Notes: generated by a model not told the origin, from the sequence alone. Positions 3,955 to 21,915 are shown, numbered from the stretch's first letter. The stretch is 64,000 nucleotides of DNA from Candidatus Omnitrophota bacterium (GCA_041651115.1 JBAZJY010000001.1:325165-389164); one strand, 5' to 3'. Translations and numbers: made by a program.

Positions 3955-4725
3955 ATGGAGTTAGGGATGAAAAAGAAAATAAGAAGGATAATACTGCTTT
4001 CGGCCCTGCTGGTTGCCGGATTATTATTCGTAGCGAAGTTCGGCGGCCCGGCGATCTTACGGATGTATATTGAAGCCGGCGTGGGCGACTGTAAGAAAAT
4101 CCCCGTCCTTTGTATCGTGCCGCAGAGCAAGATGTCAGATCCCGTTATTGATGAAGAGTATGTAGACGGCCTGTTGCCGTACGTTTATCCGGAAGTAGAG
4201 GTGCGCCTGCCCAGAGGTTTTACGGTTGTCAAGCAGATCGTCAAGCGGGTATATTATAAGAAATGGAAAAAGCGCGCTAAAGGAGCGACGATCTATCTGT
4301 TGCATGAGCCGCCGGATTATTTTATCCGTTTATTCCCCCAGCTAAAAGGAGTAGCGGTTAAGAACGATTATGATTTTGTTTCCCGTTTAATGCACGCCCG
4401 GGTCAGTGAAATAAAGAATGTTACTGACGCCTTCTTTGTGGTCATGAAAGGTATCTTTATCCCTGATCTTGCCGATCAGAACAGCGTTAAGATCATCCAT
4501 TACAGCGGCCAGGGCAGAAAAGGATTTATCGGTTATAATATGGGGGCAAAAGAGAACTATTTTGACTGCAATATTGTCGGCCCGGACGGATACTTTAAAG
4601 TATATATCAAAGATATGGCAAAGACGCTGGATTTAGAAAAAGTCGCGGCAATCTTGTCTACGCTAAAAGCTAGGGACGGTTCTCAAGCTAATCTTAAAGT
4701 GTCCCCTCCAGAGGGGACACTTTAG
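3955..4725 (+). CDS. hypothetical membrane-anchored protein (single N-terminal TM helix)
   Basis: ORF with N-terminal hydrophobic segment ILLSALLVAGLLFVA. No recognisable family. Its last about 17 codons are encoded by the left arm of a long palindrome. Confidence 0.45.
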   Translation: MELGMKKKIRRIILLSALLVAGLLFVAKFGGPAILRMYIEAGVGDCKKIPVLCIVPQSKMSDPVIDEEYVDGLLPYVYPEVEVRLPRGFTVVKQIVKRVYYKKWKKRAKGATIYLLHEPPDYFIRLFPQLKGVAVKNDYDFVSRLMHARVSEIKNVTDAFFVVMKGIFIPDLADQNSVKIIHYSGQGRKGFIGYNMGAKENYFDCNIVGPDGYFKVYIKDMAKTLDLEKVAAILSTLKARDGSQANLKVSPPEGTL

Positions 4726-10659: not shown

Positions 10660-11319
10660 ATGTACGATCTGCATACCCATTCTCTCTTGAGTGACGGAGC
10701 GCTGCTCCCTTCTGAAGTAGCCGCGCGTTATCAGAATGCCGGCTTCAAAGTTATTGCCATTTGTGACCACGCCGATTACAGCAATATAGACAATATCGTA
10801 GATTCTATCATTAATTTTAGCCGTAACTGGCCGGCAGGTTCTTTGATCAAGGTCTTGCCCGGCGTAGAATTGACGCATTTGCCGCTTAGCCATTTCCGGC
10901 CGCTGGCAGAATATAGCCGCTCAAAAGGAGTCAAGATCATTGTCGGCCACGGGCAGTCTCCGGTTGAGCCGGTGATCGCCGGAACCAATCGCGCGGCGCT
11001 TGAGGCAGGCATAGATATACTGGCGCACCCCGGTTTGATCACCGACGATGACGTTATGCTTGCAAAGGAAAGAGGGACCTTCCTTGAAATCACCTGCCGC
11101 GGCGGCCACGATAAGGGCAACCGGCATGTTGTAAAACAAGCGCTTAAGTTCGGGGCAAAGCTGGTTATTGATACGGATAGCCATTCACCAAGCGACATTC
11201 CGACATATGAGAAAATGCGCCAGGTGGGCCTTAAGGCAGGGCTTAAATCCGATCAGGTAGACCGTATTTTTAGCGATGTTCGGGAATTCCTTAGAACTAA
11301 GGGGGTAGAGTTATCATGA
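10660..11319 (+). CDS. PHP-domain metal-dependent phosphoesterase
   Basis: MYDLHTHSLLSDGALLPSEV ... ICDHAD ... DTDSHS: PHP (polymerase/histidinol phosphatase) His/Asp motifs. Confidence 0.7.
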   Translation: MYDLHTHSLLSDGALLPSEVAARYQNAGFKVIAICDHADYSNIDNIVDSIINFSRNWPAGSLIKVLPGVELTHLPLSHFRPLAEYSRSKGVKIIVGHGQSPVEPVIAGTNRAALEAGIDILAHPGLITDDDVMLAKERGTFLEITCRGGHDKGNRHVVKQALKFGAKLVIDTDSHSPSDIPTYEKMRQVGLKAGLKSDQVDRIFSDVREFLRTKGVELS

Positions 11320-11774
11320 CGCGTAAAACCTTTCTTGTTGTGGCGTTATTTTGTTTTATTATCGGTTTATTCGGATGTGCCGCGGTTTCGCAAAGGGATA
11401 GGGACACGATAAATCCGGCATTACTTGAGCCGCAGCCAATTGCCAGGTTCAGCGATGTTCCGGTACCGGTAGGCTTTAAGTTTATCCCGCAGGAATCATA
11501 TTCTTTTGAAACATCCGGCGTGCGCATGGGGCTTTTACGCTATCGCGGCAAAGGCAATCCCGACCTGGTCGTAAATTTCTACCGTGAGCAGATGGAAATG
11601 TATAATTGGCGACTGCTTAATGTCGTGGAATACGGCCAGCGCCTGATGAATTTTGACCGCGAAACCGAAACCTGCATTGTTAACATTATGCCAAGGTCCG
11701 GCAGCGTGGAGATCACTATTGCCGTAGGCCCAAAGGCCCAAGGTTCCAAGAAGGCTAAGCCGGTTGTCAAGTAA
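11316..11774 (+). CDS. hypothetical lipoprotein
   Basis: Signal peptide with lipobox (FIIGLFGC). No recognised family. ATGA overlap with the PHP gene. Confidence 0.5.
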   Translation: MTRKTFLVVALFCFIIGLFGCAAVSQRDRDTINPALLEPQPIARFSDVPVPVGFKFIPQESYSFETSGVRMGLLRYRGKGNPDLVVNFYREQMEMYNWRLLNVVEYGQRLMNFDRETETCIVNIMPRSGSVEITIAVGPKAQGSKKAKPVVK

Positions 11775-11988
11775 CTTGAAAAAACCCAGCCAAGTTTTAA
11801 CAACTAAGCAAGCAGCCGAATTCTTCCAGATACATCCGCTTACCATTAACCGCTACGCGCGCGAAGGGAAAATCCCCGCCTTTAAGATCGGCAGCGAATG
11901 GAAATTCCATAAGAAACAGCTTGCCAGATGGATCAAGGACAGGTCGCGCTATAAAATCGCCCGAAACGGCGAACGGCGGTTATTTTAA
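11764..11988 (+). CDS. excisionase-family helix-turn-helix DNA-binding protein (start uncertain: TTG at 11764 or 11776)
   Basis: LTTKQAAEFFQIHPLTINRYAREGKIPAFKIGSEWKF matches the excisionase/MerR-type HTH_17 signature (TIGR01764-like). No ATG start; near-cognate TTG. Confidence 0.6.
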   Translation: MSSNLKKPSQVLTTKQAAEFFQIHPLTINRYAREGKIPAFKIGSEWKFHKKQLARWIKDRSRYKIARNGERRLF

Positions 11989-11998
11989 AAACATTTGA

Positions 11999-12027
11999 TT
12001 GACAAAACACCCAAAGCATAATAAATT
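11999..12027 (+). promoter_or_regulatory. putative sigma-70 promoter upstream of the TonB-receptor / peptide cluster
   Basis: TTGACA (11999-12004), 17-nt spacer, TAAATT (12022-12027). Confidence 0.35.
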
Positions 12028-12124
12028 GATAGTATAGATTTGCCTGCATAGCTTATTGCAACTATACAGCTTACAACTCATCTTCAACTTTGAATCTCTA
12101 CGATTTAGCCTTATTCTCTTACAC

Positions 12125-13960
12125 GTGAAGCTTCTTCGCGCGATATTAATTTCCGGGTTAATCTTTGGTATATACGGCAGCGCACTAGCTGATGAGGTTG
12201 ATCTTGAAAGGATCGTGGTAACGAATAAACGCGCTTCCGGCGGCTTGGATGAGGCAGCGGAAAATATTGCGATTGTTGAAGAAGGGGAAATTGCTGAATT
12301 ACCTGCCAATGACTTGGGGGAGGTTTTAAGCTATGTGCCCGGCATTGATGTTGCGCCGACTAAAGGTTTTGGCAGGGCAAGCAGCCTAAGCATACAGGGC
12401 AGTGATTCCCGGCAGGTCAGGGTAATGATTGACGGTATCCCGTTAAATACCCAGTCTTCAGGACAGGTAAATCCGTCAGAATTTCCCATTGAGAATATTG
12501 CTAAGATTGAAGTGATTAAGGGCCCGGGTTCCAGCGTCTGGGGTTCAGGCCTGGGCGGTGTAATTAATATTATCACCAAAGAGACCGGAAAAACGTTTAT
12601 ACCTAAAGGCCGCGTTATCTCGTCTTATTCCGGCTTTGATACAAAAAGAGAGAGCGCGGAATTATCCGGAAAATTTTCTGGCCTCGGCTATTATCTATTC
12701 TCCAGCTATATGGATTCCGGCGGCAAGGGCTCGAAAAGTGACGTGCTGGAAAAGAAGGCTTTCAGCAAATTGTCGTATGATCTAAAGGCAGGCGGAAAGC
12801 TAACCGCTCTTTTTGGTTACAGCAGCGCTGACGTTAACAGCGGAGAGTTCCCCGGCGGCTCATGGCAGGCGCAGCCATACCGCGATCTTTATGGAAAGCT
12901 GGGGTGGGAAAATACCTTTGGGCCGGCTGACTTTAAAATTGATCTCAAGCATTTCAGAAAAGGCGTTGTTACAAAAGATTATTCTACCGTTTCAGATGAG
13001 GCGCCTTATTCGCGGGTTGACTCGAAAGATTATCTTTACCAGGTAAGCCTTAATTCAAGCCTGCGTCCGCGTAAAGTTGACCTTTTGGTAGCCGGTATGG
13101 ACTTTGACAATGATACTGTAAAATCGAGCCCGTATCTTTCTACGGCTAAGAACTTAAAGATCTACGCGCCGTATATAAACTACAGTTTGAAATTGAAACC
13201 GTGGGACATCAACTTTGGCCTGCGTTATGACAATAACAGTGAATTCGGCAGCGCTACCAGCCCGGCGTTAGGCGCAGTGTATCACTTTGAAAATTTACCG
13301 GGCACCCTGGTCCGGGCAGGGGTTTCGCGCGCGTTTAACGCGCCGCCGTTGCTTTGGAAATTTAATTATAATCCCGGTCTGAGCATTGCCCCGAATCCTG
13401 ATATAAAAGCGGAACGTGCCTGGGTATATGAAGCAGGGTTGGAAAGCCGGGCAATACCGCGGCTTTGGCTCAAGTTTTCACTTTATCGTTCTGATGTCAG
13501 GGACGCAATCAGCAGCGCGCAGAATGATGATAACCTTACCTACATGAAGAACTTCCAAAGGTTCTGCAGGCAGGGCTTGGAACTTGATTCAAGATTTGAG
13601 ATTTGCGACGGCCTGTATTTTCGCGTATCCGCGGCTTTTAACGACATAAAAGATACAGATACCGATCAGATTGTCAGGGGCGGAGGCAAGGCGCGCCAAA
13701 GTTTTAATACTGCCATAGAATATAAATCTAAATTCGGGCTTGCGGTTTCCCTTATCGGCTATTATAACCGCTGGAATGAACCGGCGGATTTCCAGCCCAA
13801 TGACCGCAAAATGCTTTGCGATCTGAAGATTACGCAGGAATGGAAGATGGTTTCCCTGTTCTTTAATGTGCATAATCTGAATAACAGCAGGTATTGGGCT
13901 GATTCTTACTTTCCTGTTCCGCAGAGGTATTTTGAAGGCGGGCTTAGCGTTAACTGGTAG
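12125..13960 (+). CDS. TonB-dependent outer-membrane receptor (small, about 610 aa)
   Basis: Signal peptide VKLLRAILISGLIFGIYGSALA. Plug domain (DEVDLERIVVT, GIDVAPTKGFGRASSLSIQGSDSRQVRVMIDGIPLN, IEVIKGPGSSVWGSGLGGVINIITK). C-terminal barrel ending in an aromatic residue. GTG start chosen (the track's 12056 is a TTG 23 codons upstream). Confidence 0.75.
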   Translation: MKLLRAILISGLIFGIYGSALADEVDLERIVVTNKRASGGLDEAAENIAIVEEGEIAELPANDLGEVLSYVPGIDVAPTKGFGRASSLSIQGSDSRQVRVMIDGIPLNTQSSGQVNPSEFPIENIAKIEVIKGPGSSVWGSGLGGVINIITKETGKTFIPKGRVISSYSGFDTKRESAELSGKFSGLGYYLFSSYMDSGGKGSKSDVLEKKAFSKLSYDLKAGGKLTALFGYSSADVNSGEFPGGSWQAQPYRDLYGKLGWENTFGPADFKIDLKHFRKGVVTKDYSTVSDEAPYSRVDSKDYLYQVSLNSSLRPRKVDLLVAGMDFDNDTVKSSPYLSTAKNLKIYAPYINYSLKLKPWDINFGLRYDNNSEFGSATSPALGAVYHFENLPGTLVRAGVSRAFNAPPLLWKFNYNPGLSIAPNPDIKAERAWVYEAGLESRAIPRLWLKFSLYRSDVRDAISSAQNDDNLTYMKNFQRFCRQGLELDSRFEICDGLYFRVSAAFNDIKDTDTDQIVRGGGKARQSFNTAIEYKSKFGLAVSLIGYYNRWNEPADFQPNDRKMLCDLKITQEWKMVSLFFNVHNLNNSRYWADSYFPVPQRYFEGGLSVNW

Positions 13961-13973
13961 ATAAAGACAAACA

Positions 13974-15557
13974 ATGCTTCGCGCCACAGCCATTTTTCTA
14001 TCAATGATGCTGTCCGTAGCAGTTTTAGAAGCTAAGGAAGTATCGCCGGAAACCAGCCGCTATGGCGGGACCCTGGTTTGGGGCGTTGCCTATAAACCCA
14101 CCATTATTAATCCCATCCTTACTACGCAAAGCGTATCTGCTTCGCTGCAGGGCCTGATTTTTAATGAGCTTATCCGTTTAAATGCAAAAGGCGAAATTGA
14201 ACCGGATTTGGCAGAATCTTGGGAGATTTCCGAAGACGGACTTGTTTATACCTTCCATTTGAGAAAAGGCGTTAAATTTCACGATGGAGTTGAGTGCACC
14301 GCCGAAGACGTAAAATTTACTTTTGATGCAGTAATTGATCCGAAAGTAAACTCGCCTTTTAGATCGTTTTTTAGTCTAGTTGCTGAATTTACGGCAGCTG
14401 ATAAATATACATTTCAGGTAGTTTTGACCAAGCCATCCGCACCGCTTCTTTACCGTTTTATCCGTCCGATAGCTCCCAAGCATATCTTAGGAAATGCCGA
14501 CCCCAAGAACTCGCCGTTTAATTACCGTCCGATCGGCACCGGGCCGTTTAAGTTTAGGGAATGGACAAAAGATGACCAAATTATCCTGGAATATAACCCG
14601 GATTATTATGAGGGCAGGCCGTATCTTGATAAGATCATAGTTAAAACCTATGCTAATTCTCAACAGCTTTGGGCAGCAATTATGCGGCAGGAAGTGGATC
14701 TGGTCCTGTTTATTGAGCGGGAAGATTATGATATTTTAAAAAATGACCCCTTGTTTAGAAATTATGCATATCCAATAGATCATTCGTTTGTTATTTCTTA
14801 TAATCTTAAAGATCCTATTCTGTCAGATTTAACGGTTAGAAAGGCCATAGCTTGCGGTATCAACAGGAAAGAGGTAATAGAAAAAATCTCGTTTGGGCAT
14901 GGAGTTGAGTGCAATGGTCCATTTTACTTTGGGTCGATTGGGTATAATCCGATGGTTAAGCCTTTTGGATTTAATCCGGGAAAAGCCAAGCAATTATTGG
15001 CAGAAGCTGCTTGGCAAGATCTGAATAATGATGGGATATTGGAAAAAGAAGGGCAGGATCTGGAAATTCGGATGCTGGTGGATGAACGTAATGAAATATA
15101 CCGTAAAATGGCCATGTTGTTCCGGCAACAACTTCAGGAAATTGGGATAAAACTTGTTATTTTTTTGTATAATGACGATATGGAACTGACGAAGAGCTTC
15201 TTGGAAAGAAATAAGATCCAGGCGCAATTGAATTTACTTCCAACCCGCGTTGATCCCGATCAAGTTTTTGAAGAATGGACTACCCAGGGGCCAGAAAAAA
15301 TTTATAAATTATGGGAATATGATAACTTTGAAGTTGAGCGGTACTTTTCGCTGGGAAAAGCTACCTTGGATAAAAATAAAAAGCGGTGGATTTATCAGGA
15401 AATTCATAAATTTATCTATGAAGACCAGCCGCTTTATTTTTTATATTTTCCATTTTTTTTCCATTCGGTTTCGTCAAGAATTGACAATACGGATGACTTT
15501 TTTACATTAAACATGCCCTACAATTCAATGCGAAAATGGTTTATTAAACACCAGTAG
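13974..15557 (+). CDS. ABC-transporter substrate-binding protein, family 5 (OppA/DppA/NikA-like); orphan, no cognate permease/ATPase nearby
   Basis: Signal peptide. GGTLVWGVAYKPTIINPIL...LIRLNAKGEIEPDLAESWEISEDGLVYTFHLRKGVKFHDG is typical SBP_bac_5. Confidence 0.8.
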   Translation: MLRATAIFLSMMLSVAVLEAKEVSPETSRYGGTLVWGVAYKPTIINPILTTQSVSASLQGLIFNELIRLNAKGEIEPDLAESWEISEDGLVYTFHLRKGVKFHDGVECTAEDVKFTFDAVIDPKVNSPFRSFFSLVAEFTAADKYTFQVVLTKPSAPLLYRFIRPIAPKHILGNADPKNSPFNYRPIGTGPFKFREWTKDDQIILEYNPDYYEGRPYLDKIIVKTYANSQQLWAAIMRQEVDLVLFIEREDYDILKNDPLFRNYAYPIDHSFVISYNLKDPILSDLTVRKAIACGINRKEVIEKISFGHGVECNGPFYFGSIGYNPMVKPFGFNPGKAKQLLAEAAWQDLNNDGILEKEGQDLEIRMLVDERNEIYRKMAMLFRQQLQEIGIKLVIFLYNDDMELTKSFLERNKIQAQLNLLPTRVDPDQVFEEWTTQGPEKIYKLWEYDNFEVERYFSLGKATLDKNKKRWIYQEIHKFIYEDQPLYFLYFPFFFHSVSSRIDNTDDFFTLNMPYNSMRKWFIKHQ

Positions 15558-15589
15558 TAGAAATCGGAGGAGAAAGGAGGTGAGGGCGA

Positions 15590-15679
15590 ATGGAGGTAAT
15601 CAGATATGGGTCAGATACGGTGATTGGTCCGCGTAGCTGTTGTTTCCCATCAGGGACAATGGGGTTAAGATTGAAATAG
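15590..15679 (+). CDS. unannotated small ORF (29 aa, MEVIRYGSDTVIGPRSCCFPSGTMGLRLK); candidate RiPP precursor peptide
   Basis: Strong SD (gaaAGGAGGTgagggcga-ATG, 8-nt spacing), 33 nt after the SBP stop and 75 nt before the radical-SAM/SPASM gene. Cys-Cys pair. Absent from the six-frame track (<60 aa). Confidence 0.4.
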   Translation: MEVIRYGSDTVIGPRSCCFPSGTMGLRLK

Positions 15680-15695
15680 TTGATAAATAAAGTTT

Positions 15696-15741
15696 CCTTG
15701 CGAGGTAAGGTTCTCATGGAAAAGAAACTTACCTCGCAAGG
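15696..15741 (+). promoter_or_regulatory. 14-bp-stem hairpin (ccttgcgaggtaag / cttacctcgcaagg) between the small ORF and the rSAM gene; putative attenuator/partial terminator. It contains the start of a 13-codon mini-ORF (15716-15757, MEKKLTSQGYFKL) whose TGA overlaps the rSAM ATG
   Basis: Read directly from the sequence. The ATGA overlap at 15754-15757 implies translational coupling. Confidence 0.4.
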
Positions 15742-15753
15742 ATATTTCAAATT

Positions 15754-17127
15754 ATGAAACTCTCACGTTTTAATATTTGGGTTAAGGATTATCCGCAGGC
15801 AGGCGACTATTTGTTATTTAACAGCCGCACGCAGGCGCTGATCCGTATCAGCAGCCAATTTAAAGCTGAACTGGATGCCTTTGTTTCTGGCGCAGCAGCT
15901 GCCAGCTGCGTTCAGGTCAGCCAGAACAGCGCTGCTTTAAGGAAAAATGGAATTATTGTTGAGGATGAGCAAGAAGAACAGGAAAAATTAGATGATTTTT
16001 TCCGGCAGCTCAAACACGAGTCCTGCGGCCTTAGTTTTGAAACCACCATACTCACCACCTATAGTTGCAATTTTAAATGCGTTTATTGCTTTGAGGAGCA
16101 GGTCAAGGAAAATGTTTTTCTTAACGCGGAAACCAGCGGTTTGATCGTTAACTGGCTGATCCACAAAGCCAAAGAAGGTAAATTCAGGACGATTCATCTG
16201 GTTTATTACGGCGGCGAGCCTTTGCTTAATCCGGCTCCGATTTACAATATCTCACGTAAGCTTTTTGCCTGGGCGCAGGATGAAGGCATTAAATTCGGTT
16301 TTTCTATAATTTCCAACGGCAGCCTGATCACTCCGCAATTGGTTGGCCGCTTGCTTAGCGTCGGCCTTAAGGAAATCCGGGTTACTATTGACGGCGACCG
16401 GCAGGCGCATAACCTGAAGCGGCCGTTCCTTGACGGATCCGGGTCGTTTGATGCGATCATCAATAATATAAAAAAAGTAATTGATAAGGTAAACATCGGC
16501 ATTGCCGGAAATTTTGACCGGCAAAGCTTTGCCAGTATTCCCCGTTTATTGGATTATCTGGAGGAAGAGGGGGTACTTTATCAGCTTAGCAGCATTAATT
16601 TTGCGCCGATTGTGCCGCGCTTAGGCCCGAAATCAGATCCCGGGGCAATTGAACTGGTAGAATGCGGCTCTTTTATCGGCAAGGAAGGCATGTTCAAGGA
16701 AACGATCGCTTTGAAAAAAGAATTAATCCGGCGCGGCTTAAAAATCAGCACCGGGCTTGCGGTCAATGCCTGCCCGTTATTCATGCAGAGCGCCGGAGTA
16801 ACCATAGACCCCAAAGGCGTGCTTTACAAATGTAATTCATTGCTTGGCCACCCGGAATTCTCCGTCGGAAACGTGCGCAATAAAGCTTACAATGAAAAAT
16901 CCCGGGAATTCTTTGAACTTGACGCCTGGAAAAAATGCCCTGCTGATTGCGCGTATGTGCCGATGTGCCAGGGCGGCTGCCGGTTCTTTTCTTACGTGGA
17001 AAACGGTAACTTTACCGATCTTTCCTGCAAGCGCGATTACTTTGACTACATAATCCCGGAGCTGATTAAGCTGGAATATGAAAAACTTAAAACTGAGGCC
17101 GTTCCTGCGGCTGCTAAAGCCGTATAA
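15754..17127 (+). CDS. radical SAM / SPASM-domain peptide-modifying enzyme (about 100-aa N-terminal extension, possible RRE)
   Basis: CNFKCVYC (CxxxCxxC) followed by YGGEPLLNP. C-terminal Cys-rich SPASM region (CPLFMQSAG...CNSLLGHP...CPADCAYVPMCQGGCRFF). Confidence 0.85.
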   Translation: MKLSRFNIWVKDYPQAGDYLLFNSRTQALIRISSQFKAELDAFVSGAAAASCVQVSQNSAALRKNGIIVEDEQEEQEKLDDFFRQLKHESCGLSFETTILTTYSCNFKCVYCFEEQVKENVFLNAETSGLIVNWLIHKAKEGKFRTIHLVYYGGEPLLNPAPIYNISRKLFAWAQDEGIKFGFSIISNGSLITPQLVGRLLSVGLKEIRVTIDGDRQAHNLKRPFLDGSGSFDAIINNIKKVIDKVNIGIAGNFDRQSFASIPRLLDYLEEEGVLYQLSSINFAPIVPRLGPKSDPGAIELVECGSFIGKEGMFKETIALKKELIRRGLKISTGLAVNACPLFMQSAGVTIDPKGVLYKCNSLLGHPEFSVGNVRNKAYNEKSREFFELDAWKKCPADCAYVPMCQGGCRFFSYVENGNFTDLSCKRDYFDYIIPELIKLEYEKLKTEAVPAAAKAV

Positions 17128-18838
17128 ACGGCAAATATCCTTTATTTTTTTGTCCATCATCATTGCCAATCTCGCGGGCCTGGTCTTTCCGTGGGTGGTG
17201 AAAATGGTAATTGATGAAATCATTCTTAAAAAAGATTTACGCTTGCTTAACAGCGCAGTAGCCTGGCTGGCCGTTAGTTTCATTGTTAAGGCGATTTTCG
17301 GATTTAGCCGCGAATACCTTGCTTCGCTGACCGGCGAAGGGATCATGGCTGACCTGCGTAACCGGATCTATTGGCACCTGCATCAGCTTTCGGTAAAATA
17401 CGTTGATAATACGCCTGCGGGAAAGATCATTTCCGGCCTCACCGGCGACGTAGAAAGCATAAAGGAATTTATTTCCGGCGGTGCGGTAGATTTCATTTAT
17501 TCTTTTTTTAGCCTCATTTTTGTGGCTGTGATGCTGGTAACGCTTGACTGGAAGCTTGCCTTTATTGCCCTGTTTTACTTGCCGGTATTTGCCGCAGCAT
17601 TCCTGAAGCTTTCTCCCCGCTTAAAAGAAAAACACGCAATAGTAAGGGAGAAATACAGCGAGATGACCTCGCGGATAAGCGAGGTATTGAACGGAATGCG
17701 CGTTGTTGCCGGGTTTTCCGGGGAGAAGAAAGAGACGGATATTTTCAGCGGAAAACAGAAAGAGATATTCAGCGCGGCTATGGGCAGCCATCGGTTAAGC
17801 ATATTTCTTTGGATGACAGCGGAATTTCTAAGTTCGCTGGGTTTAGCCATGCTTGTCTGGTTCGGGGCAAGGCAGGTGATCGCAGGGGATCTTTCCATCG
17901 GGACTTTAATGGCTTTTTATACGTATACCGGGCTGCTTTTTTACCCGGCGATCAGGATGGCGATCATCAATAATTATTATCAGGAAGCCTCTGCTTCAAT
18001 GGACCGGGTAGAGGCAGTATTAGCTACGGAGCCGGGAATAAAGGAGCGATTGCATCCAATCAGGCCTTCGCGAATTGAGGGGAATGTAATTTTTTCAGCA
18101 GTGACTTTTGGTTATGACGTTAACGCGCCCGTGCTTCAAGGCGTTAACCTTAATGTGGCCAAGTCGGAAACCGTGGCCATTGTCGGTAAAAGCGGCAGCG
18201 GCAAGACTACCCTGATAAACCTGCTTCTTAGATTTTACGATCCGGTCCAAGGAGATATTTTTATTGACGGATATAACCTGCGTGACCTGTCGCTTGAGGC
18301 ATACCGTTCGCGGATCGCCCTGGTCATTCAGGACGACTACTTATTCGGCTCCAGCATAAAAGAGAATATTGCTTATGCCAGGCCGGGGAGTTCCGACGAT
18401 GAAATCATCAAGGCGGCAAAACTGGCAAACGCTCATCAGTTTATCGTTGAATTGCCGGACGGCTATGATACCCAGATCGGCGAGCGCGGGATAAAGCTTT
18501 CTTTTGGCCAGCGCCAGAGAATCTCAATTTCCCGGGCGATCTTGCGCGATCCGGTAATACTTATCCTTGATGAAGCCACATCCGGCGTGGATTCCGAGAC
18601 CGAGCGCTTGATCATTGAGGATGCGTTTAAAAAGCTGATGCGGGGCAGGACGACTTTTGTCATTTCTCATCGCCTCAGCGCGTTAAACTACGCTGACAGG
18701 ATCATTTTCATTGAGGCCGGCAGGATAATTGAAACCGGCAGCCACGCCGAGCTTTTAGGAAAAAAGGGCAGTTATTGGAGAATGTGGTTCAGTGCGGAAG
18801 GTTATAAAAATAATGCGTATCAAGAGGCTGCTGGGTAG
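17078..18838 (+). CDS. ABC transporter, fused permease/ATP-binding exporter (MsbA-like); no C39 peptidase domain
   Basis: Six predicted TM helices then Walker A (GKSGSGKTT), signature (LSFGQRQR) and Walker B (ILILDEATS). Overlaps the rSAM gene by 50 nt. Confidence 0.85.
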   Translation: MKNLKLRPFLRLLKPYKRQISFIFLSIIIANLAGLVFPWVVKMVIDEIILKKDLRLLNSAVAWLAVSFIVKAIFGFSREYLASLTGEGIMADLRNRIYWHLHQLSVKYVDNTPAGKIISGLTGDVESIKEFISGGAVDFIYSFFSLIFVAVMLVTLDWKLAFIALFYLPVFAAAFLKLSPRLKEKHAIVREKYSEMTSRISEVLNGMRVVAGFSGEKKETDIFSGKQKEIFSAAMGSHRLSIFLWMTAEFLSSLGLAMLVWFGARQVIAGDLSIGTLMAFYTYTGLLFYPAIRMAIINNYYQEASASMDRVEAVLATEPGIKERLHPIRPSRIEGNVIFSAVTFGYDVNAPVLQGVNLNVAKSETVAIVGKSGSGKTTLINLLLRFYDPVQGDIFIDGYNLRDLSLEAYRSRIALVIQDDYLFGSSIKENIAYARPGSSDDEIIKAAKLANAHQFIVELPDGYDTQIGERGIKLSFGQRQRISISRAILRDPVILILDEATSGVDSETERLIIEDAFKKLMRGRTTFVISHRLSALNYADRIIFIEAGRIIETGSHAELLGKKGSYWRMWFSAEGYKNNAYQEAAG

Positions 18839-20639
18839 GTTCTTACTGAACAACTTTTACCGTAATATCCGGACGCAGATTGCGATCGTTTTGAGCATCG
18901 TGATCACTATCCCGGTTGTATTGCTGGGCGTTTCGCTGATTGATAATTCCCACCGGGCAGTAAAAAAATCCGTTTTGAGTAACCACAAGGAAATCGTTGC
19001 GCGCGCAGCCGAAGAGATCAGCTTGATCTTAAAACGTTCCGAAGACGTTTTAAGCGCGACTGCCGCAATGATCGGCTCGACGCATTTAGGGGCCTGGCAG
19101 CAGGAAACCGTGTTGGTCGGCCTTACGCTTGACAAGCCTGCTTTCATCAGGATAACTTCGTTTGAACTTTCAGGAAAAATGACGGCTACTTCCGACTTGG
19201 GTAAGTTCTTTGTACTTAATTACACCGATAACATAGTACAAAAGCCATTAGCCGGCCAGACCTATATTTCCGAAGTCAGGTTTCAGGATTCCAATCATCT
19301 GCCGTATCTTGGCATGTCTGTTCCGATAAGAGAAAACGGTAAGGTAAAAGGAATACTCGCGGCTGATATTAACCTGAGGAGCCTTTGGGATGTTGTTGAC
19401 GCCATACGCATCGGTACTACTGGCAGGGCATTCCTTGTATCCGGCGACGGTATTGTAATCGCTTCTCCGGACAAGAAGCAGGTCCTGAAGAATGAAAATA
19501 TCCGCTGGCAAAAAGACGTAAATGCCGCGCTCTTCGGTAAAAATGAGGCAGCGGCCTTTATCGATCCTGAAGGGAAAAAATGGATCAGTTCTTATGCGCC
19601 GGTGCCGGATACTGACTGGGGTATTGTCCTGCGGCAAGGAGAAAGGGAAGCGTATTCATTCTCCCGCGTAATGCAGTGGCAGGCATGGCTTATTATAATT
19701 TTCTGCGAGCTTGCAGCGCTCCTGGCGGCAGCATTGCTTTCCCGGCTATTCAGCCGGCCGGTCAGGATGCTGCTTTCACGGCTTAAAAGCGCCGGCAGCA
19801 GCGATTCGGAATATAAGATCGGCATAAAAAGGCACGATGAGCTGGGTGAGTTGATTAAGGTATTTAACGCGCTGGGAGATAAATTAAAGATAGCGCGGGC
19901 AAATGAGAAATTTTCCAGCATCGGCGAGGCAGCAGCCTGGGTAGCGCATGAGCTCAAAAACTCCCTTGCTCCGATAAAATCATTCGTACAGATGCTGCCG
20001 TCCCGCTATACCGACGGAAAGTTCATTGATAAATTCCAGGATATCGTGCCTGAAGAGATCATGCGCTGCGAACGCATGTTAAAAGAACTTTCGGACTTTT
20101 CTTCGTCCGCAGAATTGAAGGCGCGCCGGATCAACCTTAAAGACGTCATTGACGGCGCGTTAAAAACAATGGAAGCCAGGTTTACCGATAGCGGTATTGA
20201 CGTGAGGCTCCAGGCAGATACCACTAATCTTTATATACATGGAGACCATGATAAGCTCAAGCAGGTATTCATTAATTTATTCATTAACGCGCTCGGCGCC
20301 ATGCCGCATGGCGGCAGCATAAACCTGGCAATGCGCATCGCAAGGTCAATCTACGCTAAAGGCGATTTTTTTGTTGAAGTGAATATCGGCGATACGGGCA
20401 CCGGGATCCCCCGGGAGAGGTTGACGACCATATTCGAACCGTTCCGCAGTACCAAAAAAGACGGCATGGGCCTTGGCCTTGCCATAAGCCGCAGGATCAT
20501 TGAGCAGCACGGCGGCGAAGTCCTGGTGGAGAGCCAGCTTGATAAAGGCACGATATTTACAATACGCATTCCCCAGGCTGATCCCGGCGCTAAGGAAACA
20601 CCGGAAATCCCCTCGTTTCCTTCTGTTTTCTCAAGGTAG
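18813..20639 (+). CDS. sensor histidine kinase with periplasmic Cache-like sensor domain, HAMP, HisKA and HATPase_c
   Basis: TM1 IAIVLSIVITIPVVLLGV, about 250-aa periplasmic region, TM2, H-box AAWVAHELKNSLAP, G-boxes GDTGTGIP / GLGLAISRRIIEQHGGEV. The ATG at 18813 overlaps the ABC 3' end. Confidence 0.8.
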   Translation: MRIKRLLGRFLLNNFYRNIRTQIAIVLSIVITIPVVLLGVSLIDNSHRAVKKSVLSNHKEIVARAAEEISLILKRSEDVLSATAAMIGSTHLGAWQQETVLVGLTLDKPAFIRITSFELSGKMTATSDLGKFFVLNYTDNIVQKPLAGQTYISEVRFQDSNHLPYLGMSVPIRENGKVKGILAADINLRSLWDVVDAIRIGTTGRAFLVSGDGIVIASPDKKQVLKNENIRWQKDVNAALFGKNEAAAFIDPEGKKWISSYAPVPDTDWGIVLRQGEREAYSFSRVMQWQAWLIIIFCELAALLAAALLSRLFSRPVRMLLSRLKSAGSSDSEYKIGIKRHDELGELIKVFNALGDKLKIARANEKFSSIGEAAAWVAHELKNSLAPIKSFVQMLPSRYTDGKFIDKFQDIVPEEIMRCERMLKELSDFSSSAELKARRINLKDVIDGALKTMEARFTDSGIDVRLQADTTNLYIHGDHDKLKQVFINLFINALGAMPHGGSINLAMRIARSIYAKGDFFVEVNIGDTGTGIPRERLTTIFEPFRSTKKDGMGLGLAISRRIIEQHGGEVLVESQLDKGTIFTIRIPQADPGAKETPEIPSFPSVFSR

Positions 20640-20736
20640 AATCAGGACAGTAGAAAGTAGATTTAGCCCATTTACAATTCCGGAAAAAATAGTTATATTA
20701 GTTAGGGATACATATAAAATGCAACCGGGAGAAAAT

Positions 20737-21477
20737 ATGCCCTTAAGAGAAACGATCCTGATCGTAGATGATACAGAAAGCATTAGGAAGATATTCGTTA
20801 CGGCGTTTGACGAATACAGAATGATCACCGCGGCAAACGGGCAGGAAGCTTTGAGCATCCTGAATAGGCCTAATGATGTGGGGCTTGTGGTCTTGGATGT
20901 AATGATGCCCGGGATAAACGGCCTGGAACTTTTAAAAGAAATAAAACAGGCAAATCCCCGTTCCAAGGTTGTGATCATGACCGCATATAGCTCCAAGGAC
21001 ATCGCCGTTGAAGCTTTACGCTCAAATGCCGACGATTACATTGAGAAGCCGTTTGACATAGACGAGGTGAAGAAAATGTTTGATCGGCTACTCAAGCAGT
21101 CCGGTTATGGAGAAAGCGCAGGGCGCCCGGTTCAAAATGATAAGATCCAGTTGGCCCAGCGGCTGGTGAGACGGAATTACAACCGGCCGTTTTCCCTGCA
21201 GGATGCCTCAAAAGAGCTTTTTCTAAATTATAAATACCTAAGCCGGATATTCAAAAAGAAAACCGGCAAAGGCTTTAGCCAGTACCGTATGGAATTAAAG
21301 ATCAGCTCTGCAAAACAGATGCTAAGGGACAGCCGCGACAGTATTACCCTGATCGCTTATAAAGTTGGTTATCATAACCCGGATTCCTTCATGAAAATGT
21401 TCAAGCGGGTAACCGGCACAACGCCGTCAGACTTTCGTGCCGGCATCAGTGGCAAGGCTAAAGCCGAAAAAGTATAA
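20737..21477 (+). CDS. response regulator: receiver domain plus AraC-type HTH output
   Basis: ILIVDDTESIRKIF...VVLDVMMPGINGLELLKEIK (REC). C-terminal AraC HTH (ITLIAYKVGYHNPDSFMKMFKRVTGTTPSDFR). Confidence 0.8.
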   Translation: MPLRETILIVDDTESIRKIFVTAFDEYRMITAANGQEALSILNRPNDVGLVVLDVMMPGINGLELLKEIKQANPRSKVVIMTAYSSKDIAVEALRSNADDYIEKPFDIDEVKKMFDRLLKQSGYGESAGRPVQNDKIQLAQRLVRRNYNRPFSLQDASKELFLNYKYLSRIFKKKTGKGFSQYRMELKISSAKQMLRDSRDSITLIAYKVGYHNPDSFMKMFKRVTGTTPSDFRAGISGKAKAEKV

Positions 21478-21493
21478 TTAAAAGGGGTAACTA

Positions 21494-21856
21494 ATGGCTG
21501 GCCGTAATTTGGCGCTCGTTATTGATGACGACAAGGTTGTCAGGGACTTCCTGGTAAGGTTTCTGGAGCTTAAGGGGATGGCGGCCGTAGCCGTAGCTAC
21601 CGGCCAGGAAGCCATTGAAGAAATAAAGAAAAAGGCCTACAGTATTGTCCTTATCGAAGTAAAGATGCCTGGCATGGACGGCCTGGAAACACTTATTGAG
21701 CTTAAAAAAGTCAATACCGGCGTTAAATATGTGATGATGACCGGCGATTATACGGATCTGCGGATAAAATCGGCAGAGAGGGAAGGGGCGCTGATCTGTA
21801 TGAAAAAGCCGTTTGATATTGCCGAGCTTTCGCAAGTAATCGCTGAGTTTATATAA
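21494..21856 (+). CDS. single-domain response regulator (CheY-like receiver)
   Basis: LVIDDDKVVRDF...VLIEVKMPGMDGLETLIELKK...MMTG: receiver motifs, no output domain. Confidence 0.8.
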   Translation: MAGRNLALVIDDDKVVRDFLVRFLELKGMAAVAVATGQEAIEEIKKKAYSIVLIEVKMPGMDGLETLIELKKVNTGVKYVMMTGDYTDLRIKSAEREGALICMKKPFDIAELSQVIAEFI

Positions 21857-21872
21857 AAAGGGATATTTTTTG

Positions 21873-21915
21873 AAAAGGGGACGTTTCCCCTTCGGGAAAC
21901 GTCCCCTTTTTCTTT
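21873..21915 (+). terminator. strong rho-independent terminator closing the peptide/two-component cluster
   Basis: Perfect 17-bp stem aaaaggggacgtttccc / gggaaacgtcccctttt with cttcg loop, followed by tttttctttg. Confidence 0.8.

Follow-up and report, generated by a model that had tools for sequence, protein, structure and literature searches.

What is the function of a locus that encodes, on one strand, a cysteine-containing small peptide, an enzyme likely to modify it, an exporter, an outer membrane receptor, a periplasmic binding protein and a two-component sensor? Such a locus lies in a 64,000-nucleotide stretch of DNA from a Candidatus Omnitrophota bacterium. This whole stretch is referred to as the window, and all coordinates of the cluster are window positions. 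A first-pass annotation had described ten elements on a single strand, separated by gaps of about 100 nt at most or overlapping. By open reading frame (ORF) listing and by Pfam and NCBIfam searches, all of the elements were found at or near their annotated positions, every one on the plus strand, with the gaps and overlaps as described. Along the cluster genes from 5' to 3', the first three gaps measure 13, 32 and 74 nt, two overlaps (50 and 47 nt) come next, and the last three gaps measure 97, 16 and 15 nt.

Our analysis establishes the gene content, the gene order, the domain architecture and their conservation, together with a predicted fold of the modifying enzyme. The system is very probably one for a ribosomally made, post-translationally modified peptide (RiPP). 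On balance we also favor a recapture-and-sense loop, in which the peptide is re-imported to the periplasm and then sensed. Our preferred reading, held tentatively and at a probability of roughly 0.45, is that the secreted, cross-linked peptide is a cue rather than a metal carrier and is sensed by the triad of binding protein, kinase and regulator. The broadest form of this idea would be a diderm peptide pheromone that needs energized outer membrane import for its reception and occurs widely across phyla that are anaerobic and for the most part uncultured (Omnitrophota, Nitrospirota, Desulfobacterota, Planctomycetota, Zixibacteria and Deferribacteres). We regard that broad form as less likely than not.

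The precursor peptide

The 29-aa ORF MEVIRYGSDTVIGPRSCCFPSGTMGLRLK (15590-15679, plus strand) follows the Shine-Dalgarno sequence GGAGGTGA and consists of a leader of the form MEvIxxGSD and a core of the form CC[FWY]PxG[ST]. The first-pass annotation had proposed this Cys-Cys ORF as the precursor, and the comparison with related loci bears this out. In each of the 19 window-type loci whose upstream sequence is available, a homologue is located immediately 5' of the radical S-adenosylmethionine (radical-SAM) gene. Each locus with sequence 5' of the radical-SAM gene contains one small ORF there, 27-42 aa in length and provided with a strong GGAGG site. In an alignment of 22 precursors, which includes the window peptide and four peptides from loci of the geopeptide family described below, M1, G7, C17 and C18 are invariant and P20 is kept in at least 90% of the sequences. 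The consensus of the window clade is ME[IV][ILV]xxG[ST][DE] ... CC[FWY]PxG[ST]. When all six frames of all loci were scanned with a regular expression for the precursor, one match per locus was obtained, always directly 5' of the radical-SAM gene, and none elsewhere. Judged by this pattern of sequence conservation, the 29-aa ORF is a real precursor. It is unannotated in this genome. At E ≤ 10, neither the precursor nor any of four relatives matched an NCBIfam family, and the window peptide is absent from a collection of 15 billion protein sequences, in which such relatives as have been gene-called are unnamed.

The interval between the precursor and the enzyme gene contains a stem-loop (15695-15742, plus strand) with a perfect 15-bp stem. 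The 81-nt fold has an energy of -32.6 kcal/mol (z = -8.0), and no clear U-run is found behind the stem. A strong stem-loop lies between the peptide stop and the radical-SAM start in 23 of 23 loci, and many of these are canonical terminators with a T-run. From its sequence, the stem-loop in the window is a candidate attenuator or transcript-stabilizing hairpin. The order of precursor, hairpin and enzyme resembles the layout usual for RiPP operons in which an excess of precursor is needed. The post-precursor hairpins of six relatives share the apical loop GGGCGGCCGACC (GGGCGTACGACC in L003) despite differing stems; their approximate positions are L001:9860-9900, L002:1930-1965, L003:2745-2775, L006:9930-9965, L007:9890-9925 and L085:9925-9955. 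The shared loop, which is not present in the window's own hairpin, may serve for protein binding or belong to a conserved RNA element.

The radical-SAM maturase

The enzyme gene (15754-17127, plus strand) encodes a radical-SAM peptide maturase, for which NCBIfam, the alignment and an AlphaFold2 model suggest an RRE-like (RiPP recognition element-like) N-terminal domain and a SPASM-type C-terminus with seven Cys residues. A public protein that is 100% identical to it is annotated as 'SPASM domain-containing protein'. Pfam Radical_SAM scores 43 bits on the window enzyme, over the cut-off of 29.5, and the radical-SAM/SPASM family models of NCBIfam are matched over the full length. The top NCBIfam match is TIGR04280, 'geopeptide radical SAM maturase', with 318.6 bits, which does not reach the cut-off of 400. 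The next scores are those of CefB (184 bits), TIGR04463 (168), FlmE/OhkG (153) and Clo7bot (140), so named in NCBIfam, and the leading matches are all maturases of Cys-rich peptides. The models of characterized thioether-forming enzymes score 129.3 bits for PapB (NF047865, cut-off 340) and 87.2 bits for SCIFF (TIGR03974, cut-off 425), both below threshold. The model of anaerobic sulfatase-maturating enzymes (anSME, TIGR03942) yields only 65.5 bits against a cut-off of 349. Enzymes of that kind have neither an RRE nor a small precursor of their own, and the window has both an RRE-like domain and a conserved precursor. The profile search that the first-pass annotation had called for thus groups the enzyme with peptide maturases and not with sulfatase maturases, and on these sequence scores it is a peptide maturase.

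Among 51 aligned homologues, the CX3CX2C motif CNFKCVYC is invariant in C105, C109 and C112, as are seven Cys residues of the C-terminal part, C340, C360, C395, C399, C405, C409 and C425. The AlphaFold2 model has a predicted local distance difference test score (pLDDT) of 91.4; within residues 1-64, where the pLDDT is about 90 or higher, three helices come after three strands. In a Foldseek search of the PDB, the thioether-forming CteB (5WGG/5WHY) was the top match, with E ~1e-19 to 1e-20, a TM score of 0.65-0.69 and a full-length alignment. TigE came next, then anSME, ChlB and SuiB. CteB is also the closest PDB match of the enzyme by sequence. An RRE-like fold of residues 1-64 is supported by the model. 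As neither SPASM nor RRE is seen by Pfam, both features rest on the seven invariant C-terminal Cys residues and the predicted fold. The possible N-terminal RRE of the first-pass annotation is supported by fold, and its SPASM domain is a candidate by Cys pattern and CteB-like fold.

The seven-Cys SPASM domain of CteB reportedly leaves one auxiliary-cluster site free for a Cys of the substrate. From this and from the likeness to CteB, we infer that the window enzyme would form Cys-derived thioether cross-links on the precursor.

Conservation of the locus

A radical-SAM scan of species-representative genomes gave 18 true relatives (L001-L018) at 29-61% identity, from metagenome-assembled genomes (MAGs) of Omnitrophota, 'Deltaproteobacteria', Planctomycetia/Planctomycetales, Zixibacteria, Latescibacterota and Nitrospirae. 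Three more loci (L084-L086) were obtained by exact look-ups of homologues. Gene order was assessed by tblastn with the window proteins, by ORF maps and by Pfam-annotated gene tables. The order receptor, family-5 binding protein, small ORF, radical-SAM gene, (ABC exporter), dCache kinase and REC-AraC regulator, where REC denotes the receiver domain, is kept in 20 further loci from several phyla, on MAGs of Omnitrophota, Planctomycetota, 'Deltaproteobacteria', Zixibacteria and Latescibacterota. The linkage of the small ORF to the receptor, binding-protein and two-component genes, whose conservation had been left as a check, thus extends across several phyla. Counted over informative window-type loci, the family-5 binding protein and a downstream kinase are each present in 19 of 19, as is the precursor. 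The receptor is found in 17 of 18 (shifted downstream in L005, missing in L014), the ABC exporter in 14 of 19 and the REC-AraC regulator in most. The arrangement of the cluster is far beyond chance. All-against-all clustering of the ORFs of 19 loci recovered the radical-SAM, two-component, binding-protein, receptor and ABC families and otherwise only shadow ORFs; no protease, permease, immunity or tailoring gene was conserved.

In L017:6100-11350 and L018:8100-11400, both on long-read MAG contigs, the receptor, binding-protein and radical-SAM genes are split into several ORFs. Either sequencing errors that shift the frame or decay of these copies could account for the broken genes.

Receptor, binding protein and exporter

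The TonB-dependent receptor (12056-13960, plus strand) belongs to the small BtuB/CirA size class and contains Plug and TonB_dep_Rec barrel domains (Pfam). Translation probably begins at GTG 12125, which is followed by a signal peptide with the end ALA|DE and then by the TonB box ERIVVT. In the PDB, the receptor is closest to CirA and BtuB (E ~1e-22), and the PQQ transporter 9C4O is also among the matches. The score of the receptor is far under all NCBIfam cut-offs, and the protein has no N-terminal signaling extension. Cobalamin was considered as the ligand of this BtuB-like receptor and rejected, as no cobalamin or other riboswitch was found and the Rfam matches were chance hairpins only. In L008, from an Omnitrophota MAG, two more paralogues of the cluster receptor (16866-18833 and 19030-20970) are located just 3' of the cluster and could serve related peptides.

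The next gene (13974-15557, plus strand) encodes a periplasmic family-5 solute-binding protein with a signal peptide (SBP_bac_5, E 2e-88). Its best PDB matches, to which it is equally close, are the Ni(II)-binding CcNikZ-II (8EFZ, 1e-60) and the oligopeptide binder AppA (1XOC, 1.5e-59), with CjNikZ third. The NikZ loop TEDKYT, which carries Glu60, aligns to TTQSVSASLQ of the window protein, which has no Glu there, and no HH pair occurs in its C-terminal 60 residues. Direct binding of Ni in the manner of NikZ was therefore rejected, both the Glu60 loop and the His-His prong being missing, and a peptide becomes a likelier ligand for the binding protein than a bare metal ion. No Opp/Dpp/Nik permease was found by Pfam or NCBIfam among the flanking genes checked, which makes the binding protein an orphan. 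An inner membrane permease was likewise found in none of the loci examined, in the window clade and the geopeptide clade alike.

The exporter gene (17078-18838, plus strand) overlaps the radical-SAM gene by 50 nt, and the overlap is real. It encodes an MsbA-type ABC half-transporter with ABC_membrane and ABC_tran domains and no C39 peptidase domain, just as the first-pass annotation had it. Against NCBIfam MsbA_rel it scores 463 bits, under the cut-off.

Sensor kinase and regulators

The sensor histidine kinase (18792-20639, plus strand) has the Pfam architecture transmembrane segment, periplasmic dCache, transmembrane segment, HAMP, HisKA and HATPase, the transmembrane segments being hydrophobic stretches that start around residues 25-36 and 293-303. 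It is followed by a response regulator of 246 aa with REC and AraC-type helix-turn-helix (HTH) domains by Pfam (20737-21477, plus strand); the start at ATG 20737 was read from the sequence, and the ORF opens at 20500. Most loci encode an orthologue, 235-259 aa in length. The last gene (21494-21856, plus strand) encodes a stand-alone, CheY-like receiver (Response_reg, E 3e-22), and a similar lone REC gene lies 3' of the AraC regulator in L006, L008, L018 and L084.

A 74-aa DNA-binding protein with an HTH_17 domain (11764-11988, plus strand; Pfam, E 6e-15) is encoded just outside the start of the cluster as first annotated. Its sequence and place suggest that it is probably part of the system. 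HTH_17-REC fusion regulators are found 5' of the receptor in L004, L085 and L086, and the HTH_17-only protein of the window, together with the lone REC at the far end, may be a split form of such a regulator. A sigma-54 activator of the NtrC type is located 5' of the receptor in L001, L006, L007, L014 and L085. The recurrence of extra regulators around the cluster suggests an output wider than one uptake operon.

Scans for known types of control were negative. In the regions 5' of the receptor gene of 19 loci, no Fur-like box had more than 13 of 19 matches, no better than elsewhere, with an E. coli consensus that may not apply in these phyla. No sigma-54 promoter was found 5' of the receptor, the binding protein or the peptide in 18 loci, though sigma-54 activators adjoin some of them, and Rfam gave no known riboswitch.

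Relation to the geopeptide family

By sequence, the enzyme group of the window is a sister clade of the NCBIfam geopeptide family TIGR04280, a 'hypothetical equivalog' defined in silico. L016, from Nitrospirae, scores 545.7 bits and is a true member, and its homologues bear the NCBI name 'geopeptide radical SAM maturase'. L004, L008 and L012 score 281, 258 and 255 bits. The window enzyme at 318.6 bits and its relatives at 255-281 bits thus all stay under 400, in contrast with 546 for L016. We inspected the loci of four true members, L016 and L081-L083, which come from Nitrospirae, Deltaproteobacteria and Deferribacteres. In all four, one strand carries the receptor, a CC-peptide, a terminator, the radical-SAM gene and a REC-GerE regulator, and the opposite strand carries, divergently, a PF04392 binding protein and a HAMP kinase. 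In L081 the binding-protein gene stops 1 nt ahead of the kinase gene. In these loci, some 150 aa of the kinases make up a periplasmic domain, and signal peptides are present on the binding proteins.

The two clades have much in common. The radical-SAM enzymes are homologous, with about 30% identity in a full-length alignment. The short precursors are homologous as well, with a leader of the form ME..I/V..G and an invariant Cys-Cys about 17-24 residues in, and are encoded directly 5' of the enzyme gene with a hairpin or terminator in between. A homologous BtuB-sized receptor is encoded directly 5', and the window receptor is 27% identical over its full length to that of L016. Both kinds of locus hold a periplasmic binding protein, a sensor kinase and a response regulator. 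They differ in the core, which is CC[FWY]PxG[ST] in the window clade and CC[KR][PG] in the geopeptide loci, and in the output domain of the regulator, AraC as opposed to GerE/LuxR. They differ also in the dCache domain of the window kinase, in the presence of an ABC exporter, and in the binding protein, SBP_bac_5 inside the operon of the window as opposed to the non-homologous PF04392 protein, divergent and kinase-coupled. Since the binding protein has been swapped for a non-homologous one and neither clade has a permease, a role as co-sensor of the kinase is easier to accept than the feeding of an importer.

A proposed circuit and its alternatives

The chemistry, the export step, the identity of what receptor, binding protein and kinase bind, and the existence of a feedback loop are inferred from these observations. 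The RRE-like domain of the CteB-like enzyme would hold the 29-aa precursor by its leader (MEvIxxGSD...), and the radical-SAM domain would act on the Cys-Cys core CC[FWY]PxG[ST], most likely to make one or two Cys-derived thioether cross-links. The hairpin behind the precursor would hold its transcript above that of the enzyme. Where it is present, the MsbA-type exporter would carry the product out of the cytoplasm. The product would be too large for porins and would thus re-enter through the dedicated TonB-dependent receptor, which would bring external product back into the periplasm. There, the orphan family-5 binding protein would capture it, and the dCache kinase would read either the liganded binding protein or the peptide itself. 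Phosphorylation of the REC-AraC regulator and the accessory receivers would then switch on the cluster and possibly other genes. The binding protein would be a co-sensor and not a part of an import system, and the peptide would be a self-made extracellular cue. The circuit of production, export, sensing and re-import put forward in the first-pass annotation is thus arguable as far as the periplasm, while re-import to the cytoplasm lacks a permease in the loci examined.

Precursor, exporter, membrane kinase and response regulator are co-encoded, as they are in peptide quorum sensing of the Agr, Com or nisin type, and the set recurs across the loci. Several features favor the cue. Three-component sensors made of a binding protein, a kinase and a REC-AraC regulator, such as HptASR of S. 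aureus, and the LuxP-LuxQ pair are established precedents. The swapped, kinase-coupled binding protein of the sister clade, the missing permease, the several regulators, the three-component paradigm and the negative Fur, riboswitch and sigma-54 scans incline us toward a cue, with no more confidence than the estimate of just under one half given above. A number of points weigh on the other side. We know of no peptide pheromone that is sensed by way of a TonB-dependent receptor and, to our knowledge, a receptor gene beside biosynthesis genes nearly always denotes a metallophore among characterized clusters. The invariant residues of the core (CC, Pro/Gly) are better conserved than is usual for pheromone cores. 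Of 19 window-type loci, 5 lack the ABC exporter, as do the four geopeptide loci, and the cluster encodes neither an outer membrane export component nor a leader protease. Pfam finds no SPASM domain in the maturase even at E ≤ 10, nor in its isolated C-terminal 175 aa, and no PqqD/RRE match when the N-terminal 96 aa are scanned in isolation. Finally, the Fur scan rests on the E. coli consensus, which may be unsuited to these phyla.

The alternative that deserves most attention is a ribosomal metallophore similar to methanobactin. In habitats that lack oxygen and contain sulfide, the secreted, modified Cys-Cys peptide would capture a thiophilic metal in short supply (Ni, Co, Cu, Zn, Mo or W), the receptor would take up the complex and hand it to the binding protein, and the kinase and regulator would induce on the loaded peptide, as PfeS/PfeR or PchR do. 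A receptor adjoining biosynthesis genes is the classic signature of such systems, the parallel to methanobactin operons is close (PMC3621798), the two adjacent Cys residues are invariant, and the host lineages are all anaerobes, in which thiol ligands would survive. The binding protein also has the Ni(II)-binding CcNikZ-II as its best PDB match and CjNikZ as its third, but it lacks the Glu60 and the His-His prong that are essential in NikZ. The nearest characterized enzymes use up the Cys thiols in thioether bonds, and the core offers no other conserved metal ligand (His, Asp or Glu). The cluster contains no gene for a metal-responsive regulator, and the scans revealed neither a Fur-like box nor a metal riboswitch. 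An inner membrane importer is present in none of the loci examined, and the non-homologous, kinase-coupled binding protein of the sister clade fits sensing better than transport. We consider the metallophore, with the route of uptake and induction just described, plausible but less probable than the cue. If true, this would be the first ribosomal metallophore made by a radical-SAM enzyme for life in anoxic habitats; the cue, if true, would be the first diderm peptide cue received through a TonB-dependent transporter.

Other readings are much less probable. Antibacterial activity is common among sactipeptides, and an autoinducing kinase-regulator pair is found in lantibiotic clusters, nisRK being an example. 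The presence of a precursor, a radical-SAM enzyme and an ABC exporter would suit an antimicrobial RiPP with autoinduction in the style of nisin, its receptor and binding protein serving recycling, self-protection or entry into relatives. The cluster has no recognizable immunity gene, however, its exporter is dispensable in many loci, and the core is highly conserved across phyla. A producer is also unlikely to keep an uptake receptor for its own toxin in the operon at essentially every locus, and we consider this reading improbable. PQQ, which a radical-SAM/SPASM enzyme produces from PqqA, has its use in the periplasm and is scavenged via the TonB-dependent PqqU, and a peptide-derived periplasmic cofactor or shared micronutrient with salvage might be handled in the same manner. 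The enzyme type and RRE logic would be those of PqqE/PqqD, the PQQ transporter 9C4O is among the matches of the receptor, and the missing inner membrane importer suits periplasmic use. But no protease, further tailoring enzyme or candidate client enzyme is conserved in the loci, and neither a kinase-regulator pair nor a binding protein is a feature of cofactor pathways, so that a cofactor is, if anything, slightly less probable still than a toxin. The last possibility is that a peptide or nickel uptake set and a radical-SAM gene are neighbors by chance, or that a sulfatase or cofactor maturase is accompanied by a spurious 29-aa ORF. Short ORFs and promoter-like hexamers do arise randomly, and the total of the promoter scan (below) is not above that of shuffled sequence. 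Against this, upward of 20 loci from different phyla keep the gene order, the protein sequence of the precursor is conserved, each locus yields exactly one precursor match, and the anSME model is far from its cut-off. Model scores, gene order and precursor conservation contradict both chance adjacency and a sulfatase maturase, and we rejected this explanation as scarcely credible.

Boundaries and setting of the cluster

The promoter that the first-pass annotation had placed at 11999 is present as a sigma-70-like candidate, TTGACA-17-TAAATT (11999-12027, plus strand, 10/12 matches). A promoter scan of the region gave 24 sites as compared with 17.6 ± 4.5 in shuffled sequences. As this excess is not clear, it is by its position that the candidate is supported. 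A second promoter-like site, TTGACA-16-TACATT (15481-15508, plus strand, 10/12 matches), sits in the 3'-terminal part of the binding-protein gene, 80 nt 5' of the precursor start, and could drive a separate precursor transcript. At the other end, the terminator annotated at 21873 with a 17-bp stem proved to have an 18-bp stem and to span 21872-21911 on the plus strand, with a UUCG loop and a U-rich tail (-32.2 kcal/mol, z = -5.8).

The flanking genes checked are housekeeping genes. Those 5' of the cluster are for PolX, ApbE, panB, a class-II tRNA synthetase, PPDK, a sigma-70 factor, a phosphoribosyltransferase, a PHP phosphatase and a lipoprotein; those 3' of it are rplU, obg, proB and proA. 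In a Pfam search of ten flanking ORFs, nine were housekeeping genes (PolX, ApbE, PanB, the class-II tRNA synthetase, PPDK, sigma-70, the phosphoribosyltransferase, proB and proA), and the ORF at 3955-4725 had no Pfam match. The predicted lipoprotein (152 aa, 11316-11774), which has a signal peptide ending in LFGC and lies between the PHP phosphatase and HTH_17 genes, has no Pfam or NCBIfam match and is not kept beside the cluster in other loci.

The GC content of the window is about 47%, with a drop to 40.6% at 14001-16000, the region of the binding-protein gene and the precursor. With a few antisense shadow ORFs set aside, all 58 long ORFs in the window are on the plus strand, and the GC skew is positive in each 2-kb bin from 1 to 64000. 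The whole window looks like one co-oriented block, apparently on the leading strand.

Comparison with known systems

The first-pass annotation had recognized in this layout no described family. That statement has to be revised, for the window enzyme belongs to the sister clade of the geopeptide family and four geopeptide loci share the same logic. The family is already named in silico, and the window clade, which falls below the curated threshold, has a distinct accessory set (SBP5, ABC exporter, dCache kinase and REC-AraC). No experimental paper on the geopeptide family or on the layout of the window was found in the literature searched. The superfamily is large: a query from the geopeptide clade found 1,583 proteins at E ≤ 1e-40, and a query from the window clade gave at least 120 relatives at 54-77% identity. 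It is confined to poorly known, mostly uncultured anaerobes of six or more phyla, and its only public label is an in-silico family name. A compact locus supplies substrate, enzyme, exporter, importer, periplasmic binder and sensor, and its biology is testable by heterologous expression. It could shed some light on the interactions of Omnitrophota with other cells.

Precedents for a RiPP cluster with its own TonB-dependent transporter are two, methanobactin and Itf. The methanobactin operon contains the ribosomal precursor MbnA, the modifying enzymes MbnB and MbnC, the inner membrane MATE exporter MbnM, the TonB-dependent MbnT, periplasmic binding proteins 3' of the transporter and the regulators MbnI/R (PMC3621798). 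It shares with the window a Cys-containing precursor, a modifying enzyme, an exporter, a TonB importer with an adjoining orphan binding protein and a regulator that responds to uptake (PMC3621798). The enzymes are different, MbnB being a DUF692/MNIO iron enzyme whereas that of the window is a radical-SAM enzyme, and neither MbnB (DUF692/MNIO) nor MbnC domains were found in any cluster protein by Pfam or NCBIfam. The methanobactin exporter is of the MATE type and that of the window of the ABC type. Regulation there proceeds through an ECF sigma and anti-sigma pair via an N-terminal extension of the receptor, whereas the window has a kinase and regulator and no extension. The Itf cluster of Bacteroides thetaiotaomicron, with the radical-SAM enzyme ItfD, the YcaO protein ItfB, the ABC/C39 protein ItfE, the TonB-dependent transporter ItfF and the precursor ItfA, is likewise a diderm radical-SAM RiPP cluster with its own TonB-dependent transporter and ABC exporter (PMC11002830). 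It differs in its chemistry, a Trp-Ile C-C cross-link and an amidine, and in an exporter with a C39 domain, and no binding protein or kinase-regulator pair has been described for it (PMC11002830).

With CteB/SCIFF and PapB the window enzyme shares the fold, including the N-terminal peptide-binding domain (CteB), the seven C-terminal Cys residues and a Cys-containing substrate. The sequence identity is only about 17%. The window precursor has two adjacent Cys residues, in contrast with the six spaced Cys residues or the CX3D repeats of SCIFF and PapB substrates, and the SCIFF and PapB clusters contain no receptor, binding protein or two-component system. On the side of sensing, LuxP-LuxQ and HptA-HptS-HptR resemble the window in having a binding protein without a permease beside a kinase with a tandem PAS/Cache-type sensor, and HptR is a REC-AraC regulator. 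These systems, however, sense small metabolites whose synthesis lies outside the operon, and they need no outer membrane transporter, whereas the locus described here encodes both the peptide and the receptor through which it would return.

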